Part shown: one piece after another, positions 32,475 to 38,922 of the stretch
Layout: every line of letters begins with the position of its first letter
Numbering within the stretch: position 1 is the first letter of the stretch
Source of the DNA: an uncultured Planctomycetia bacterium
GTDB taxonomy: Bacteria > Planctomycetota > CAYHQZ01
Length of the DNA stretch: 40,089 nt
Reading direction: 5' to 3'
NCBI GenBank assembly: GCA_964358555.1
Contig: CAYHQZ010000002.1
Span: 1-40,089 of the forward strand
The notes under the pieces: model-generated
Database searches by the model: none
Told to the model about the DNA's origin: nothing
The model's input: the letters and a program-made list of their open reading frames with translations, nothing else
Program-made: the position numbers and the translations under genes

Positions 32475-32503
32475 TTGACACCCAACCCCTGGACCCACTA
32501 CCA
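32475..32503 (+). promoter_or_regulatory. sigma70-like promoter of nrdR and the NrdD-like gene
   Basis: TTGACA (32475-32480), 17-nt spacer, TACCAT (32498-32503). A partial palindrome CACTAccatTTGTG overlaps the -10. Confidence 0.4.
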
Positions 32504-32620
32504 TTTGTGCTCGCGCGCCGGTGGTCGGCGCAGGGGTGCGGGTCGATGATCCCATTTTTTCAGGTTCGGAGGGAACTCCCGGCGCGGCCCGATGTTCCGG
32601 GCGGCGAGGATGATGTCGCG

Positions 32621-33127
32621 GTGTGGTGTCCATTCTGCAAAAATTCCGATAGCCGGGTCATCGACTCCCGCAGTCCCGGCGAAGGTTTCATCATCCGGCG
32701 CCGGCGCGAGTGCCTCGCCTGCAAGCGCCGGTTCACGACCTACGAGCGTATCGAGCAGAAGCCGCTCAAGGCGGTGAAGAAGGACGGCACCCGGGTGCCT
32801 TACGACCGCGAAAAGATCCTCTCGGGCCTCCGGAAGGCCTGCCAGAAGCGGCCCGTCTCGGAGGACGCCATCGAGGAGGTCGCCGCCGCTATCGAGGTCG
32901 AGGCCCACGAGCAGCCCGACGGCGAGGTCTCGACCGCCTGGATCGGCGAGCGGATCATGCACCACCTGCGGGGCCTAGACCAGGTCGCCTACGTCCGGTT
33001 CGCTTCCGTCTATCGCGCATTCCAGGATGTCTCCGACTTCGTCACCGAGGTCCGCCCGATGCTGGAGCCGGGCCATCCTCCGGTGCGTGTTTCGGAGGGA
33101 TCTCCCTCGCGTCCCCTCGGGCCCTAA
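32621..33127 (+). CDS. nrdR: transcriptional repressor NrdR (zinc ribbon + ATP-cone)
   Basis: WCPFCKNSDSRVIDSRSPGEGFIIRRRRECLACKRRFTTYERIE is followed by an ATP-cone (VKKDGTRVPYDREKILSGLRKACQKRPV...). GTG 32621 lies 10 nt after GAGGA and gives the canonical M-x-CPFC N-terminus. An upstream ATG at 32546 is the alternative start. The stop is TAA at 33125-33127. Confidence 0.9.
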   Translation: MWCPFCKNSDSRVIDSRSPGEGFIIRRRRECLACKRRFTTYERIEQKPLKAVKKDGTRVPYDREKILSGLRKACQKRPVSEDAIEEVAAAIEVEAHEQPDGEVSTAWIGERIMHHLRGLDQVAYVRFASVYRAFQDVSDFVTEVRPMLEPGHPPVRVSEGSPSRPLGP

Positions 33128-33155
33128 TCCCTTGCCTCCGCACATTTCCCATCCT

Positions 33156-35294
33156 GTGTCGATCATCCAGATCCGAAAGCGAGACGGACGCCTCGTCCCG
33201 TTCGACGGAGCGAAGATCTCGGAGGCGATCTATCGGGCCGCCGTCTCCGTTGGCGGCGAGGATCGCGCGCTGGCCGACGAACTCGGGGGCGTTGTGAAGG
33301 TTTTGCTCGAGCGGGAATTCCGCGATCGGGTCCCCGGGATCGAGGACATCCAGGACCTCGTCGAGAAGGTCCTGATCGAGACGGGCCACGCGAAGACCGC
33401 GAAGGCCTATATCCTCTACCGCGATCGCCGGGCGCGGATTCGCGAGACCCTCTCCGTTCGCAAGGAGCGCCCCGCCCTCGAGGGCCCCCGGGTCGAGTCC
33501 GCCAGCCGATCCGAGGTCCGCCCCTGGAACAAGGCCCGGATCGTGGACGCCCTCGTCGCCGAGGCCGACCTGCCCCGCCCCGAGGCGGAAGAGGTCGCCC
33601 GCGAGGTCGAGGACCGGATCTTCCGTGCGGGGCTCCAGAAGCTCTCCACCTCGCTCGTACGGGCGCTCGTGGACAACGTCCTGCTCGAGCGGGGACTGGA
33701 AAACCGCCTCGCCCGCCAGCGCTCCATCGGGCTGCCGAAGTTCGACGTCCGGGAGATACTGAAGGGAAAGGGGGTCGCACCCACGGGCCGATCCCCGTCG
33801 GCCCGGGACGCCTCTGCGCGAATCGCGGGCGCCATCCTCGGGGCCCACAACCTCGAGGAGGCGTTCAGCCCGGAGGTTCTCGAGGCCCATCGGGAGGGGC
33901 GCATCGATCTCGGGGACGCGGCGTCCATCGCCCCATCCAGGCTTCGCACGATCCCGCTCAAGACCCTGCTCGCCCCCGAGGCGAACGCCTCCTGGGCCCG
34001 GCCGCCCCGCGTGCCGGGCGATTTGCCTTCGATGCTGCGGGCCATCCTCGACGCCGTGGAAGCCCTCGGGGCCGCCGGCGTCCCCGCCGTCGCGATCCCG
34101 CTCCTGGATGCGTTCCTTTCGCCCTGGGCGGAATCCGCGGAGCGGCGCGACGTCTCCCGGTTTGCTTCCGGGCTTCTCGATGGCCTGGAGCGGATCTGCC
34201 GGCTCGGCGGCCCCCGGGCCGAAATTCATCTCTGTGCGTCGATGCCCGCCGACGTCCGGGCCCTTCCCGCCTGCGGGACCGGCGGGGCGCCGCTGCCCAA
34301 GCCCTACGGGGCCTGCGAGGAGTCCGCCCGCTCGCTCGCCCGCGCGATTTTGGCCGCCTACGGGGAGCGCAATGCCGCCGAGCGCGCCCTCGACGCCCCG
34401 CGCGTGGTCCTGCGGGTCGCTCCCGAGGACCTCGAGCGCGCCGACTCTCTTGCCCTCGTCGAATACGCGGCCGTCATCGTCGAGGACAACGGGGGTCCGA
34501 TCTTCTCTCTCGCCGGGATCCGTTCCGCGGGGATTCCGGGCCTGCCTTCGCCTTCGGGAGAGGGCTTCCCGTTGTGGGACCGGCCGGTCTCGGTCTTGGA
34601 GGGCGTTTCGCTGAACCTCCCGCTTGCGGCCCTGGAGGCCGGAGGCGAAGAGGGGCGGCTCTACGAGGCCCTGGAAAGCCGGCTTTCGCTTGCGACCCGG
34701 GCGCTCACCGAGCGGCGGGCATTCCTGCGCGAAATCGGGCTTTCCGCCTCCGGCGTCGCCCCGGCCGCCCTCGAGGTCTTCCCCGTGGCCCTCGTCGGGC
34801 TGCCCGAATGCGCAGCCGCCCTCTTGGGTCCGGGCCCCGAGGCCGCGCGCGCTTCGCGGATCCTGGCGTTCCTGTCCGCGCAGGCAAAGACCGCGGCCGC
34901 CGGCGCGGCGAGCGGTGTTCTGCGGTCCGGCGAGCGGACGGCCGTCGCCGCCCGGTTCGCCCGGACGCTTCGCGACCGCGGCTCGATCTCCTCCGTCTCG
35001 CGCGGGATCCTGCGCGAGGGGGATCCGGAGTGGCTCGCCGCCGCGCCCCGCCTCGCCCCGTTCCTTTCGGAAGGGCCCGTCCGCCGGGTCCGCTCGTCCG
35101 CGGAGCCGGTGGATCGGGAGATTGTCCAGGGGATGCTGCAGTCGCTGCTCCGGAGCGGCGGCTTCCGCGGCCTGGCCGTCCTGCCGGAGGGCTCGATCTG
35201 CCACGGCTGCCGGGACTTCGTCCCGGAGGGCCGTGCCTGCCCCCGTTGCGGCCCCGGCGCCGCGACCTCGGTTCCGGAGCTGGAGTTCGAATGA
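33156..35294 (+). CDS. divergent NrdD-like (class III ribonucleotide reductase-like) protein with two ATP-cones and a C-terminal zinc ribbon, no visible glycyl-radical motif
   Basis: GTG 33156 lies 28 nt after the nrdR stop. ATP-cone 1 is IQIRKRDGRLVPFDGAKISEAIYRAA...YILYRDRRARIRE. ATP-cone 2 is VRPWNKARIVDALVAEADLPRPEAEEVAREVEDRIF...LVDNVLLERG. AHREGRIDLGD resembles the NrdD aH..G.ihiHD segment (from memory). The protein ends ..GSICHGCRDFVPEGRACPRCGPGAATSVPELEFE. Confidence 0.7.
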   Translation: MSIIQIRKRDGRLVPFDGAKISEAIYRAAVSVGGEDRALADELGGVVKVLLEREFRDRVPGIEDIQDLVEKVLIETGHAKTAKAYILYRDRRARIRETLSVRKERPALEGPRVESASRSEVRPWNKARIVDALVAEADLPRPEAEEVAREVEDRIFRAGLQKLSTSLVRALVDNVLLERGLENRLARQRSIGLPKFDVREILKGKGVAPTGRSPSARDASARIAGAILGAHNLEEAFSPEVLEAHREGRIDLGDAASIAPSRLRTIPLKTLLAPEANASWARPPRVPGDLPSMLRAILDAVEALGAAGVPAVAIPLLDAFLSPWAESAERRDVSRFASGLLDGLERICRLGGPRAEIHLCASMPADVRALPACGTGGAPLPKPYGACEESARSLARAILAAYGERNAAERALDAPRVVLRVAPEDLERADSLALVEYAAVIVEDNGGPIFSLAGIRSAGIPGLPSPSGEGFPLWDRPVSVLEGVSLNLPLAALEAGGEEGRLYEALESRLSLATRALTERRAFLREIGLSASGVAPAALEVFPVALVGLPECAAALLGPGPEAARASRILAFLSAQAKTAAAGAASGVLRSGERTAVAARFARTLRDRGSISSVSRGILREGDPEWLAAAPRLAPFLSEGPVRRVRSSAEPVDREIVQGMLQSLLRSGGFRGLAVLPEGSICHGCRDFVPEGRACPRCGPGAATSVPELEFE

Positions 35295-35349
35295 TTCCAT
35301 CGTTCACCCAAGAACGGCCGGCAAGCGCCGGCCCAGGAGCGTCGTCGCC

Positions 35350-35679
35350 GTGCGCCTGAAGTCCCTCGATCTCTACGGATTCAAGTCCTTCGCCGATCGC
35401 ACCGAGTTTTCCTTCGACCGCGGGGTCACGAGCATCGTCGGCCCGAACGGCTGCGGGAAGTCGAACGTCGTCGACGCGATCAAGTGGATCCTCGGCGAGC
35501 AGTCGGCCAAGAGCCTCCGCGGGTCCGAGATGGCCGACGTCGTGTTCAACGGGACGGACAAGCGAAAGCTCCTGCCCTTCGCGGAGGTGACGCTTTCGTT
35601 CGTGAACGGCGCGAACGGCGGCGGCGAGGAGGAGGTCCGGATTACGCGCCGGGTCTACCGGGACGGGACCGGCGAATAA
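35350..35679 (+). CDS. smc: SMC N-terminal head fragment (Walker A), terminated by an in-frame TAA
   Basis: The GTG start gives M/V-RLKSLDLYGFKSFADRTEFSFDRGVTSIVGPNGCGKSNVVDAIKWILGEQSAKSLRG...ITRRVYRDGTGE, followed by TAA at 35677-35679. Confidence 0.85.
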   Translation: MRLKSLDLYGFKSFADRTEFSFDRGVTSIVGPNGCGKSNVVDAIKWILGEQSAKSLRGSEMADVVFNGTDKRKLLPFAEVTLSFVNGANGGGEEEVRITRRVYRDGTGE

Positions 35680-35904
35680 CGCCGGAACGGCGAGCCCTGC
35701 CGCCTGAAGGACATCAAGGAACTCTTCCTCGACACGGGCTCCAGCCTCGACTCGTTCGCCATCGCCGAGCAGGGCCGGATCGACGCGATTCTCAACGCCA
35801 GCCCCCAGGAGCGCCGCGGCATCCTCGAGGAGGCGGCCGGGATCAGCCGGCTCAAGTCGAAGAAGAAGGAAAGCCTCGCGCGTCTCGATCGCGCCGGCCA
35901 GAAC

Positions 35905-38900
35905 TTGGAGCAGCTCCGGGCGGTGCTCCAGGAAATCGAACGCTCGCTGCGATCCGTGCGCGTCCAGGCGGGCAAGGCGCGTTCCTATCAGGCCCTCGTC
36001 GGCGAGCAGCGCGAAAAAAGAGTCCTCCTGATGCTTCGCCAGCGATCCGACGCCGTCGAGCGGGTCCGGCTGGCCCGGGAGGCCAGGACCGGCGCCGAGC
36101 GCGTCCGCAACGAAGCGGGGGCCGCGTTGGAGGCGGCCGAGACGGCCCTCCGGTCCGCCGAGGAAGCCTTTGAATCGATCCGCGCCGAGCGGGAGGCCGC
36201 CCGGGCGGAGCTGCTCACGCGGGAAGGGGAGCGGATGGTCGCCCTCGAGCGTCTCGAAAACGCCCGCGCCCGCTTCGTCTCCCTAGAAGTCCGGATCGCG
36301 GAAGCCTCCGATCGCGCCGCGGCCGAGGCGGCCCGCCAGGCCGCCCGCGCCATCGAGGTCAAAACCGCGATCGAGGCCTGCGCCGCCGCGGAGGCGGCCG
36401 TCCGGGAGGCGGCTGTTCGCGAGCAGGAGGCGAACGGCCGGCTCGAGGACGTCGAGTCCGCGATTCGCGAGATCGAGGCGGCGGCCGCGGAGGCCCGCCG
36501 GCATGCGTTCGAGGCGGCCGAGTCGGCGGCTCGGGCCGCGTCCGACGAGTCTGCGGCCCGGACCGAGGAGCAGACCCACGAATCCCGCCTCCGCCGGTTC
36601 CGCGAGCGCCAGGAGGAGGTCGAGAAGCGGGCGGCCCGCCACCAGGCCGACCTGGAACACATGGCCGCCCGGATCCGGGCGCATGCGGAGAGCCTCGGGA
36701 TCCTCGAGGGGGACTGGAAGGAGCACTCGGAGATGGAGGCCGCGGTCCAGGCCTCCCGGAGCCAGATCGCGGAGGCCCACCGCAAGATGTCCGAGCAGCG
36801 GGCGGCCCTTTCGTCCCGGCTCGAGATCCTCGAGGACCTCGAGCGCCGCCACGAGGGAATCGCGGCCGGCGCGCGCGCGATCCTCGATCGGGGATCGGAT
36901 CGGATCGAGGGGATCGTCGGGATCCTCGCGGAGCGGATCGACGCCCGTTTTGAGGACGCCCGCGCGGTCGAGGCGCTTCTCGGGGAGTTCGTGTCCGCCC
37001 TCGTCGTCCGGGAATCCTCCGCCGCCTGCGCGGCCGCCGCGTTCCTGCACGAATCGAACGAGGGGCGCGCCCTCATGCTGCCGCTCGATCGATTCGGGCC
37101 GGGCGCGGAGGCGCCCGCGGCGATGCCGGCCGGGACCCGGCGCGCCCTGGACTCCGTGACCGCCCCGCCCGAACTCGCAGGCGTTCTGGCCCGGCTTCTC
37201 GGATGTGCCGCCCTCGCGCCTTCGCTGGAAACGGCGCTTGCGCTCGCGGCCGCCTCGCCTCCGGGCTGGGCGTTCGCGACCCCGGACGGCGAGGTCGTCC
37301 GATCCGACGGATGCGCCCTCGTGGGCGGGACCGGCGTCGAGGGTCCGCTGACCCGTCGCATGGAGATCCGGCGCCTGCAATCGGTCATCGGCGAGGTCGG
37401 CGCGGAGATGGACAGGCTTTCGGACGATCTCTCCGAGCACGAGCGGAAGGCCGCCTGGATCGAGGCCGAGAAAAAGCAGCTCCGCACCCGGATCTACGAC
37501 GAAAACGTCCTGAAGCAGGAAGCCGAGGGGGCGCGCAAGGCGACGGAGGCGGCGCTGATCGCGGCGAGGGACGAGGAGCGGATCCACCGCTCCGAAATCG
37601 AGGAGGCCGAGCGAGGCCTCGGGGAAGCCCGACAGCGGCGCGAGGCCGCCGACGCCGCGCGCAAATCGCACGACGCCGAGCGGGCGGCCGGCGAGGCGGC
37701 CATCGCGGAAGCCCTGCTGCGCCGCGAGGCGCTCGGGGCCGAGCGGGCGGCGGCCGTTTCGGAACTCACGTTCGCCCGGACGGTCCTCACGCGCGCCCAG
37801 GCCGACGCCGAGTCCGCCGAGGCGCGTGTTGCAACCGCCCGGCGGGCGGAGGAGGAAGGCGCCCTCGTCCTCGGGACGCTGCGCTCGGACGCGGATCGCG
37901 CCCGGGCCGAGCGCGAAACGAGCGCTTCGGAAATCGAGCAGGCGGGAGGCGTCGTCGCGACGCTGGAGCGTTCCATCGGGGAGACCTCCGAACGGCTCGC
38001 CCGCCTCGAGACCGGCGAGGGCGGCGCCCGGACGGCGCGGGAGGCCGCCGACGCCTCCGCGCGGACCGCGCGCGAGGACCTCCAGTCCGCCGAGGCCGTC
38101 CGGGCCGGGGCTGTCGCGGAGGAGGCGGGGCGGGAGGGGGAGCTTAAGGGGCTCGAGGAGCGCGCCCGCGAGGAGCTGGATTCCGACCTCGAATCCGTCG
38201 CGGCGGCCCGGCCGGCCGGCGAGGAGATGCCGCCGGAGTCCGAGCTCAAGAGCGCACTCGAGACGCTCAAGCGGAAAATCGAGCACATGGGCCAGGTAAA
38301 CCTGAACGCCATCGCCGAGCAGGAGGAGCTGGAGGCCCGCCACACGAGCCTCTCCGCCCAGGAGCAGGACGTGCTCAAGGCCAAGGCCGACCTGGAGGCC
38401 ATGATCGAGGAGATCAATCGGGTCAGTCGCGACCGCTTCGCGACCACGTTCGCGGCCGTCCGCGAGAATTTCCAGGAGGTCTTCCGGAAGCTCTTCGGCG
38501 GCGGCAAGGCCGACATCCTCCTCGAGGAGGGCAAGGACGTGCTCGAGGCCGGGATCGAGATCGTCGCCCGCCCGCCGGGGAAGGACCTTCGCACGATCTC
38601 GCTTCTGTCCGGCGGCGAGAAGACGCTGACGACGCTGGCGCTGCTGTTCGCCGTTTTCCGCACCCGTCCGTTCCCCTTCACCGTCCTCGACGAGGTGGAC
38701 GCGGCGCTCGACGAATCGAATATCGATCGGTTCATCGGGATGCTCAAGGAGTTCTCGAAGACCTCCCAGTTCATCATCATCACGCACAGCAAGAAGACGA
38801 TGGCCTCCGCGGACGTCCTTTACGGCATCACGATGCCGGAGGCGGGCGTCTCGAAGAAGGTCGAGGTCCGGATCGAAGAGGTGGAGAGGGTCCTCGAGGA

Positions 38901-38922
38901 AGTCCCGGCCGCTTCGCGGTAG
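35905..38922 (+). CDS. smc: SMC remainder (coiled coils, hinge, signature motif, Walker B); homology actually resumes at 35680 in the same frame
   Basis: The frame is the same as 35350..35679. Codons 35680-35904 read RRNGEPCRLKDIKELFLDTGSSLDSFAIAEQGRIDAILNASPQERRGILEEAAGISRLKSKKKE, which includes the Q-loop region. The hinge is GIVGILAERIDARFEDARAVEALLGEFVSALVV. The signature motif is LSGGEKTLTTLALLFA and the Walker B is FTVLDEVDAALD. The TTG at 35905 is only the first possible start codon after the stop. Confidence 0.85.
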   Translation: MEQLRAVLQEIERSLRSVRVQAGKARSYQALVGEQREKRVLLMLRQRSDAVERVRLAREARTGAERVRNEAGAALEAAETALRSAEEAFESIRAEREAARAELLTREGERMVALERLENARARFVSLEVRIAEASDRAAAEAARQAARAIEVKTAIEACAAAEAAVREAAVREQEANGRLEDVESAIREIEAAAAEARRHAFEAAESAARAASDESAARTEEQTHESRLRRFRERQEEVEKRAARHQADLEHMAARIRAHAESLGILEGDWKEHSEMEAAVQASRSQIAEAHRKMSEQRAALSSRLEILEDLERRHEGIAAGARAILDRGSDRIEGIVGILAERIDARFEDARAVEALLGEFVSALVVRESSAACAAAAFLHESNEGRALMLPLDRFGPGAEAPAAMPAGTRRALDSVTAPPELAGVLARLLGCAALAPSLETALALAAASPPGWAFATPDGEVVRSDGCALVGGTGVEGPLTRRMEIRRLQSVIGEVGAEMDRLSDDLSEHERKAAWIEAEKKQLRTRIYDENVLKQEAEGARKATEAALIAARDEERIHRSEIEEAERGLGEARQRREAADAARKSHDAERAAGEAAIAEALLRREALGAERAAAVSELTFARTVLTRAQADAESAEARVATARRAEEEGALVLGTLRSDADRARAERETSASEIEQAGGVVATLERSIGETSERLARLETGEGGARTAREAADASARTAREDLQSAEAVRAGAVAEEAGREGELKGLEERAREELDSDLESVAAARPAGEEMPPESELKSALETLKRKIEHMGQVNLNAIAEQEELEARHTSLSAQEQDVLKAKADLEAMIEEINRVSRDRFATTFAAVRENFQEVFRKLFGGGKADILLEEGKDVLEAGIEIVARPPGKDLRTISLLSGGEKTLTTLALLFAVFRTRPFPFTVLDEVDAALDESNIDRFIGMLKEFSKTSQFIIITHSKKTMASADVLYGITMPEAGVSKKVEVRIEEVERVLEEVPAASR

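Follow-up and report, generated by a model that had tools for sequence, protein, structure and literature searches.

A catalytically dead NrdD descendant behind nrdR in an uncultured planctomycete, a probable nucleotide-sensing pseudoenzyme

The window analysed here is a stretch of 40,089 nucleotides (nt), positions 1 to 40,089 of contig CAYHQZ010000002.1, from an uncultured Planctomycetia bacterium (GenBank assembly GCA_964358555.1). It contains nrdR, followed on the same strand by a gene for a 712-residue protein related to NrdD, the anaerobic (class III) ribonucleotide reductase (RNR). This NrdD-like protein descends from NrdD. Alignment indicates that all catalytic elements of the enzyme have been lost, whereas the N-terminal ATP-cone is well conserved. 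With a probability of about 0.6, the protein is a catalytically dead, double-cone NrdD descendant that would sense ATP and dATP under the control of NrdR and does not act as an enzyme.

The two genes and the parts of the NrdD-like protein are as follows.

32621–33127, plus strand: nrdR, 168 residues, zinc ribbon and ATP-cone; GTG start, TAA stop; TIGR00244 at 187 bits (cut-off 124.65), with PF22811 and PF03477 also matching
33156–35294, plus strand: radical-dead NrdD-like gene (P0001), 712 residues; GTG start, TGA stop
33165–33434, plus strand: ATP-cone 1, residues 4–93; PF03477 at 79.9 bits; predicted local distance difference test score (pLDDT) of 83–92; well conserved
33516–33716, plus strand: degenerate second ATP-cone-like helical domain, residues 121–187; second stretch of the Pfam match
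33717–35180, plus strand: diverged NrdD barrel, residues 188–675, without the NxN flap, the strand-A cysteine, the phosphate loop, YTNSIH and GAIIHAF
34512–34604, plus strand: finger-loop remnant, residues 453–483; rich in proline and glycine, no cysteine; ACCRL aligns to GIPGL; pLDDT 26–39
35199–35249, plus strand: zinc ribbon C682-x2-C685-x9-C695-x2-C698; aligns to the ribbon of working NrdDs; all four cysteines intact

A preliminary description of this DNA had placed the second gene 28 nt behind nrdR and had recognized two consecutive ATP-cones at its N terminus. The coordinates bear out the first point. The second is supported by the two separate stretches of the Pfam match, of which the latter is degenerate.

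Loss of the catalytic elements

Motifs were compared by alignment to working NrdDs of Planctomycetota. The second active-site cysteine of these enzymes lies on strand A in the motif VYCSS (or PYCSG), and a ten-residue deletion removes its segment, LGYPTRVYCS, from the NrdD-like protein. The thiyl-radical cysteine at the tip of the finger loop (ACCRL or ECCRL) is also gone, and no cysteine occurs anywhere in residues 388–551. The NxN substrate flap, canonically NENSNI, reads GVAPTGR, and the phosphate-binding loop, canonically ESPAES, reads SGERTA; the roles of these two elements are as described for the Prevotella copri enzyme (PMC11226230). The YTNSIH and GAIIHAF motifs have disappeared as well.

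At the C terminus, C698 of the ribbon is followed by 14 residues ending in GPGAATSVPELEFE and then by the stop codon. No R-[IV]-x-G-[YF] motif, represented by RIVGY in the working enzymes, is present. The ribbon had been noticed near the C terminus in the preliminary description, correctly as to its presence but with a ten-residue spacer and 12 trailing residues, where the protein has nine and 14. Its observation that a glycyl-radical segment is missing holds: the gene stops at 35294, and the GTG start codon of smc follows at 35350, after only 55 nt.

The five cysteines outside the ribbon, at positions 348, 360, 373, 387, and 552, were each checked against the columns listed as conserved in the alignment to homologues, and none of the five falls in such a column. 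The segment ERICRLGG, which contains Cys348 and had been put forward as a possible finger-loop cysteine motif, aligns to SQSAFSRGGQ, about 110 residues ahead of the finger loop, and was rejected as a candidate. The segment AHREGRIDLGD corresponds to residues 244–254.

As judged from the aligned sequence, all catalytic elements are lost. A protein that has neither a glycyl-radical segment nor the two radical cysteines nor the motifs for substrate binding cannot be a working class III reductase. The earlier suggestion that it might represent a new variant of NrdD is thus not supported.

Descent from NrdD

In a Pfam scan, the NrdD-like protein matches the ATP-cone family PF03477 at 88.5 bits over its two stretches (cut-off 25.8) and the NRDD family PF13597 at 31.3 bits (cut-off 26.2), the latter over profile positions 14–325 of 562 only. 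It scores 36 bits against TIGR02487, for which the cut-off is 326.35, and all NCBIfam equivalog models of NrdD stay far under their cut-offs. By these scores the predicted protein is a homologue of NrdD and not an equivalog.

A HMMER search of 1.84 billion representative proteins returned only 77 hits, the best of which, apart from the protein itself, has an E-value of 8e-21 and 31% identity. Word-index searches, run with the barrel by itself or with an alignment of 27 barrel sequences, retrieved only the protein itself and one protein from an FCB-group metagenome-assembled genome (MAG), alanine-rich words saturating the candidates. In a profile search the nearest working enzymes are double-cone NrdDs of about 810 residues from Brocadia, Jettenia, Phycisphaerae, and other Planctomycetota. 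A genome of the same-phylum comparison set encodes a protein identical to a Candidatus Brocadia entry, which assigns the MAG containing the window to Planctomycetota. Searching the PDB with the single sequence yielded marginal matches only (E-value 0.18).

The AlphaFold2 model of the protein has a mean pLDDT of 62.9 and a predicted template modelling score (pTM) of 0.46. Confidence is mixed in the barrel, with the values given above for cone 1 and the finger-loop region. When the model was submitted to Foldseek, the 26 best matches were all solved structures of class III RNRs, with E-values from 1.8e-18 to 1e-10 and template modelling scores (TM-scores) of 0.5–0.6. The top match is the S. thermophilus enzyme (9d3x, E-value 1.8e-18); the P. 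copri, T. maritima, and T4 enzymes are also matched, and 4coj reaches a TM-score of 0.61 normalized to the target. The model leans toward the NrdD fold because its underlying alignment consists mostly of working NrdDs. On this model, the protein probably retains the 10-stranded barrel of the NrdD type. The relationship to NrdD proposed in the preliminary description is therefore upheld, by PF13597 above its cut-off and by the structural matches.

Uneven conservation along the protein

Conservation was measured against the consensus of 36 working Planctomycetota NrdDs and the columns conserved in them. Cone 1 is 73% identical to the consensus and keeps 50 of 52 conserved columns (96%), among them K8, R9, D10, G11, F16, K20, I21, V69, E70, H78, and Y85. 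The inner cone-like domain is 52% identical and keeps 23 of 28 columns. Identity falls to 25–30% in the barrel, where 27–35% of the conserved columns are kept, and to 10% in the finger-loop region, where 2 of 20 remain. The K-R-D-G hairpin is absent from the second cone, as it is from the inner cone of working double-cone NrdDs.

Since the cone has been spared and the barrel eroded, neutral decay does not account for the pattern. What selection has plainly preserved is the cone for ATP and dATP, carried on an NrdD scaffold that is less strictly maintained and retains its ribbon. The survival in cone 1 of 50 of the 52 columns conserved in the working enzymes makes nucleotide sensing plausible. 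The preliminary description had offered a catalytically dead, nucleotide-sensing paralogue as one possibility. Its first element agrees with the loss of the motifs and its second is plausible on the evidence of the cone, but the protein is not a paralogue, because the gene is the only one of NrdD type found in the assembly and occupies the ancestral position of nrdD.

Radical-less relatives and linkage to nrdR in Planctomycetota

A double-cone NrdD(-like) profile matches 313 of 401 sampled Planctomycetota genomes at an E-value of 1e-5 or below, although the weakest among them may reflect nothing more than an ATP-cone. Only 80 of the 401 encode an NrdD that passes the TIGR02487 cut-off. Forty loci with intermediate profile scores were fetched from Planctomycetota genomes. 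All encode NrdD-like proteins that lack both active-site cysteines, the radical glycine, and the ribbon, except L065 and L067, which are contig-truncated copies of working-type NrdDs.

Among 49 Planctomycetota loci that were examined, 45 have nrdR immediately in front of nrdD or of a dead descendant of it. The order recurs in 30 of 33 additional loci taken from named MAGs, a set found by a locus search driven by ATP-cone patterns. As working and dead copies share this order, nrdR-nrdD(-nrdG) is the arrangement ancestral to Planctomycetota, and the window has inherited its linkage. The preliminary description had seen in the linkage a hint of a regulatory role; being standard for working and dead copies alike, the linkage alone is no argument for one.

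In a maximum-likelihood tree, the NrdD-like protein falls inside a radical-less clade of 41 rows, with 99% support in the Shimodaira–Hasegawa-like approximate likelihood ratio test (SH-aLRT), sister to the working enzymes of Planctomycetota. An approximately unbiased (AU) test on a reduced set of 31 rows under LG+G4 rejects its grouping with the crown working NrdDs (p = 0.0007). Long-branch attraction may affect the placement in the tree and in the AU test. The ribbon is kept by the NrdD-like protein alone in the clade and is lost in all 40 other members in the tree. Whether relatives share the shortened C terminus, a question raised in the preliminary description, thus has a divided answer: the clade is radical-less, but its other members have also lost the ribbon. 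Just outside the clade, the radical-less G014 protein and P0058 likewise end right after the ribbon.

The ratio of nonsynonymous to synonymous substitution rates (dN/dS) of the barrel in nine pairs within the clade ranges from 0.33 to 0.66, which is relaxed yet below 1. For the N-terminal 185 codons it is 0.18–0.56 in seven of eight clade pairs, and dS is saturated in the eighth.

Some radical-less loci are accompanied by an activase gene. A NrdG2-type radical-SAM gene lies 3′ of the NrdD-like gene in 12 of them (L029, L032–L034, L036–L038, L044, L048, L050, L055, and L066). The 12 proteins lack both cysteines and the radical glycine, and all except L066 have also lost the zinc ribbon. The NrdG2-type activase that follows the radical-less gene of G014 reaches 189 bits, where 131 is the cut-off.

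Another group of Planctomycetota NrdDs (L075, L078, L079, L083, L071, L072, L074, L009, and L013) keeps VYCSS, ACCRL, and the ribbon and has TRIVGY replaced; most have an adjacent NrdG2-type activase. Four such proteins from MAGs share the tail R[VI]DE[TS][ED]...W.RE...E..R.EL, in which the radical glycine aligns to a glutamate, and in L078, L079, and L083 the conserved new tail ends in a cysteine pair (-CC-). Other variants of the glycyl motif are ERLDSY in L071 (glycine to serine), SRIDAS in L009 (glycine to alanine), R.IDY in L013 and L072, and SSNSCC in L074. These glycine-replaced proteins could be radical RNRs that do not use a glycyl radical, or early steps in a series of decay. A 2024 survey describes class III RNRs with the canonical glycine only (PMC11528403).

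Ribonucleotide reductase genes in the rest of the genome

The assembly, a MAG, comprises 4.1 Mb in 469 contigs, with a completeness of 85.6% and 3.99% contamination. It contains no second match to PF13597, no Gly_radical domain (PF01228), no NrdB, and no open reading frame (ORF) resembling a detached glycyl-radical tail of NrdD. No NrdG scores above the TIGR02495 cut-off in this 85.6% complete assembly. None adjoins the NrdD-like gene, as had been observed in the preliminary description. The best tblastn match to NrdG, a radical-SAM gene on contig C162 with 31% identity, was considered as a hidden activase and rejected, being QueE-like.

A B12-dependent reductase, NrdJ of the PRK07562 type, is present in two parts, which break off exactly where contigs C310 and C409 end. 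No ATP-cones were found in the assembly other than those of NrdR and the NrdD-like protein, so this NrdJ is cone-less. The genome inventory that the preliminary description had recommended thus yields a cone-less NrdJ and, in the assembly, no NrdG, NrdB, or other NrdD. A second NrdJ fragment, on C459, carries an intein at the active-site motif NPC|GE; it may be a second RNR or contamination.

Promoter and a palindrome resembling the NrdR box

Two putative control elements lie 5′ of nrdR.

32475–32504, plus strand: promoter-like site TTGACA-18-TACCAT, matching 10 of 12 consensus positions
32495–32510, no strand assigned: cCACTACCATTTGTGc, a palindrome similar to the NrdR box; it overlaps the −10 hexamer of this promoter-like site

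The promoter-like site is the only one on the plus strand between 32300 and 35450, a region for which shuffled sequence gives a mean of 0.1 sites. The core of the palindrome, CACWANNNNTWGTG, occurs at exactly three sites in the 4.1-Mb assembly: in the nrdR promoter, upstream of nrdJ (C310:2241), where the full palindrome reads cCACTACGGGTTGTGt, and on C29. When up to one mismatch is allowed, 9 of the 43 regions upstream of nrdR contain the core. These amount to nine sites in 10.7 kb, against four in the roughly 390 kb making up the rest of the loci, or about 80 times the density there. The strict NrdR-box consensus ACACWATATWTWGTGT has no match in the window with up to three mismatches. The palindrome sites fit a prediction that NrdR regulates its own operon together with nrdJ.

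Gene borders, coding nature, and neighbouring genes

The sulfatase-family gene and dus that lie 5′ of nrdR are both on the opposite strand, which leaves nrdR and the NrdD-like gene as a unit of two genes. The NrdD-like gene probably starts at 33156, because its homologues begin only a few residues ahead of the RKRDGR hairpin; an in-frame ATG farther 5′, at 33027, would overlap nrdR.

The window has a guanine-plus-cytosine (GC) content of about 70%. Homology spans the NrdD-like frame from the ATP-cone through the ribbon, which shows that it is not a chance ORF. Homology markers (AH..G, LNLP, GL.EC, R..A..D, and the ribbon) are distributed along its full length, and no frameshift interrupts the 2.1 kb. 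The GC content of the barrel at codon positions 1, 2, and 3 is 76%, 56–60%, and 87–88%, respectively, and resembles that of the neighbouring genes.

The 55-nt spacer in front of smc (35295–35349) contains a GC-rich hairpin, GGCCGGC-AAGC-GCCGGCC, with no T-run, and then AGGAG. Transcription of the nrdR operon may extend into smc. The smc frame (35350–38922) has a single in-frame TAA at 35677–35679, with ordinary SMC sequence on both sides (SMC_N and hinge). The stop stands where other Smc proteins typically have a tyrosine (..GE[Y]..NG), and it reflects either an error of assembly or a nonsense mutation of very recent origin.

Proposed function and alternative explanations

Radical chemistry has been lost and the cone kept, and the NrdD-like protein is therefore read as a nucleotide-sensing pseudoenzyme of the NrdR regulon. 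The gene holds the ancestral slot 3′ of nrdR and retains the N-terminal cone, a loose barrel scaffold, and the zinc ribbon of NrdD, with deoxynucleotides presumably supplied by the B12-dependent NrdJ. Most likely it would be co-transcribed with nrdR, and NrdR would repress the promoter of both genes. Through cone 1 the protein would read the ratio of ATP to dATP and respond by a shift in oligomeric state or partner binding, as the ATP-cones of RNRs and of NrdR do, and the output would feed the control of deoxynucleoside triphosphate (dNTP) supply. Candidate partners are NrdR, through cone-to-cone contact, and the cone-less NrdJ, through regulation in trans. Nucleotide binding, control by NrdR, and any regulatory output are steps that we infer.

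Several points weigh against this reading. The barrel is rich in alanine, leucine, arginine, glycine, and proline, and the antisense strand of the gene holds an ORF of 752 residues, a reminder that long ORFs arise easily at 70% GC. The branch of the protein is long, at 1.2 changes per site; no database relative is near enough to gauge selection on this copy, and the dN/dS values of the clade indicate weak constraint. Confidence in the model is modest (mean pLDDT 62.9, pTM 0.46), with an alignment drawn mostly from working NrdDs. As to regulation, the palindrome agrees with the classical NrdR box at only 10 of 16 positions and stands as a single box in place of the classical tandem pair, and adjacency to nrdR, being inherited, is by itself no proof of functional coupling. 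Finally, at a completeness of 85.6%, nrdG counts as not found rather than as absent.

The main rival explanation is that of a decaying relic: class III use was abandoned, and the gene has drifted with its frame left open since stop codons are rare at such a GC content. The very long branch, the low-complexity barrel, the low model confidence in many segments, and the want of a close relative in any database suit a relic, and so does the relaxed dN/dS of the clade. The antisense ORF shows how easily frames stay open, and the in-frame TAA in smc would mean that the assembly or the lineage tolerates lesions. Drift, however, would wear the cone as fast as the barrel, yet 50 of 52 conserved columns survive in the cone and only about 30% in the barrel. 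The frame has also run for 2.1 kb without a frameshift and with homology markers throughout, the four ribbon cysteines are all intact, and GC content at second codon positions lies well under that at third positions. Related radical-less genes, moreover, persist in many Planctomycetota families with dN/dS below 1. A relic is accordingly unlikely, although it deserves serious consideration.

The evidence leaves far less room for a new kind of radical enzyme, one that would carry its radical on another residue or receive it in trans from a separate tail or a radical-SAM protein. This idea draws on radical-less relatives elsewhere that keep a NrdG2-type activase downstream, such as that of G014, and on the Planctomycetota NrdDs that keep both cysteines with the radical glycine replaced. 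In the NrdD-like protein, however, no site for thiyl chemistry is left, since it has lost the NxN flap and the phosphate loop along with both active-site cysteines; none of the five non-ribbon cysteines occupies a conserved column, and searches of the assembly turned up no NrdG, no Gly_radical domain, and no ORF for an NrdD tail. Hardly credible at all is an assembly or binning artefact in which the truncated C terminus is false and the real gene a normal nrdD. The MAG is fragmented (469 contigs, 3.99% contamination), and a suspicious stop lies nearby in smc. Against this, the losses are spread over the whole barrel and are not confined to its end, the window is a single 40-kb contig of even composition, and the 55 nt between the stop codon and smc code for a radical tail in no other frame.

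A broader proposal can be made, which is offered tentatively and is itself doubtful. Radical-dead NrdDs might constitute a third functional class of ATP-cone proteins beside RNRs and NrdR, namely stand-alone, trans-acting sensors of ATP and dATP. Such sensors might confer dATP feedback on a cone-less NrdJ or tune NrdR by cone-to-cone contact, and the ribbon-bearing form described here would be an intermediate in the conversion.

The window thus presents a maintained NrdD descendant without radical chemistry in an nrdR operon, and similar genes appear to be widespread in the phylum. One consequence is that annotation pipelines overcall the capacity for anaerobic ribonucleotide reduction in Planctomycetota; another is that an unstudied player in the control of dNTP pools may exist. 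Within the phylum, the proteins can be arranged in a graded series from the working enzyme through replacement of the glycine, loss of the cysteines, and loss of the tail, the stage represented here, to loss of the ribbon. The series makes a good system for studying how an enzyme is converted into a pseudoenzyme.

Comparison with known systems

Full-text literature searches found no description of radical-less NrdD homologues, and the literature on class III RNRs treats the sequences as glycyl-radical enzymes. The closest working counterparts are NrdDs of Brocadia and Jettenia (P0145, P0111, and P0079; about 810 residues). They too are encoded directly after nrdR and share with the NrdD-like protein a functional cone, a degenerate inner cone, the helix STSL(I/V)R.LVDN.L.ERG, the barrel fold, and the ribbon. 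Identity to them is 32–35% overall and 73% in cone 1. Only the working enzymes possess VYCSS, ACCRL, the NxN flap, ESPAES, and TRIVGY; they are about 100 residues longer and are usually followed by nrdG.

The radical-less clade of Planctomycetota resembles the NrdD-like protein in its linkage to nrdR, the conservation of cone 1, and the loss of catalytic residues. The clade contains no close relative of the protein, however, identity being 34% at best. In subclades f34, f55, and f96 an activase gene lies downstream, whereas none follows the gene in the window.

A functional parallel for the cone is offered by the NrdD of P. copri (PDB 8p23 and 8p28; Foldseek E-value 1e-14), in which binding of ATP or dATP at the cone alters oligomeric state and dynamics (PMC11226230). 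That enzyme is active. Its cone exerts its effect on the NxN flap and on the glycyl-radical domain, neither of which the NrdD-like protein has.

Winged helix-turn-helix (wHTH) proteins of archaeal type fused to a dead NrdD (P0029, P0051, P0060, and P0071, among the HMMER hits) likewise have a barrel without the canonical thiyl cysteine or the radical glycine. They differ in having an N-terminal winged-helix domain of their own and in forming a separate branch of the tree; the NrdD-like protein has no such domain and is paired with NrdR. An ArsR-like winged-helix N terminus precedes a NrdD-like body in six metagenome hits (P0029, P0051, P0060, P0062, P0071, and P0078), all without the canonical double-cysteine finger loop and most with a changed glycine motif. 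The fusion of a wHTH domain to a radical-less NrdD body implies that such bodies are also put to non-catalytic use.

A further parallel is NrdR itself (S. coelicolor structures 7P37 and 7P3F; PMC9110341), which likewise combines an ATP-cone with a four-cysteine zinc ribbon, is non-catalytic, and forms part of the circuit that controls RNRs. In the window, NrdR is encoded in the same operon as the NrdD-like protein. The two proteins differ in architecture. NrdR has about 150 residues and an N-terminal ribbon that serves as its DNA-binding element. In the NrdD-like protein, in which a Pfam scan detects no DNA-binding domain, the ribbon is the C-terminal one of NrdD, and about 490 residues of barrel lie between it and the cones.

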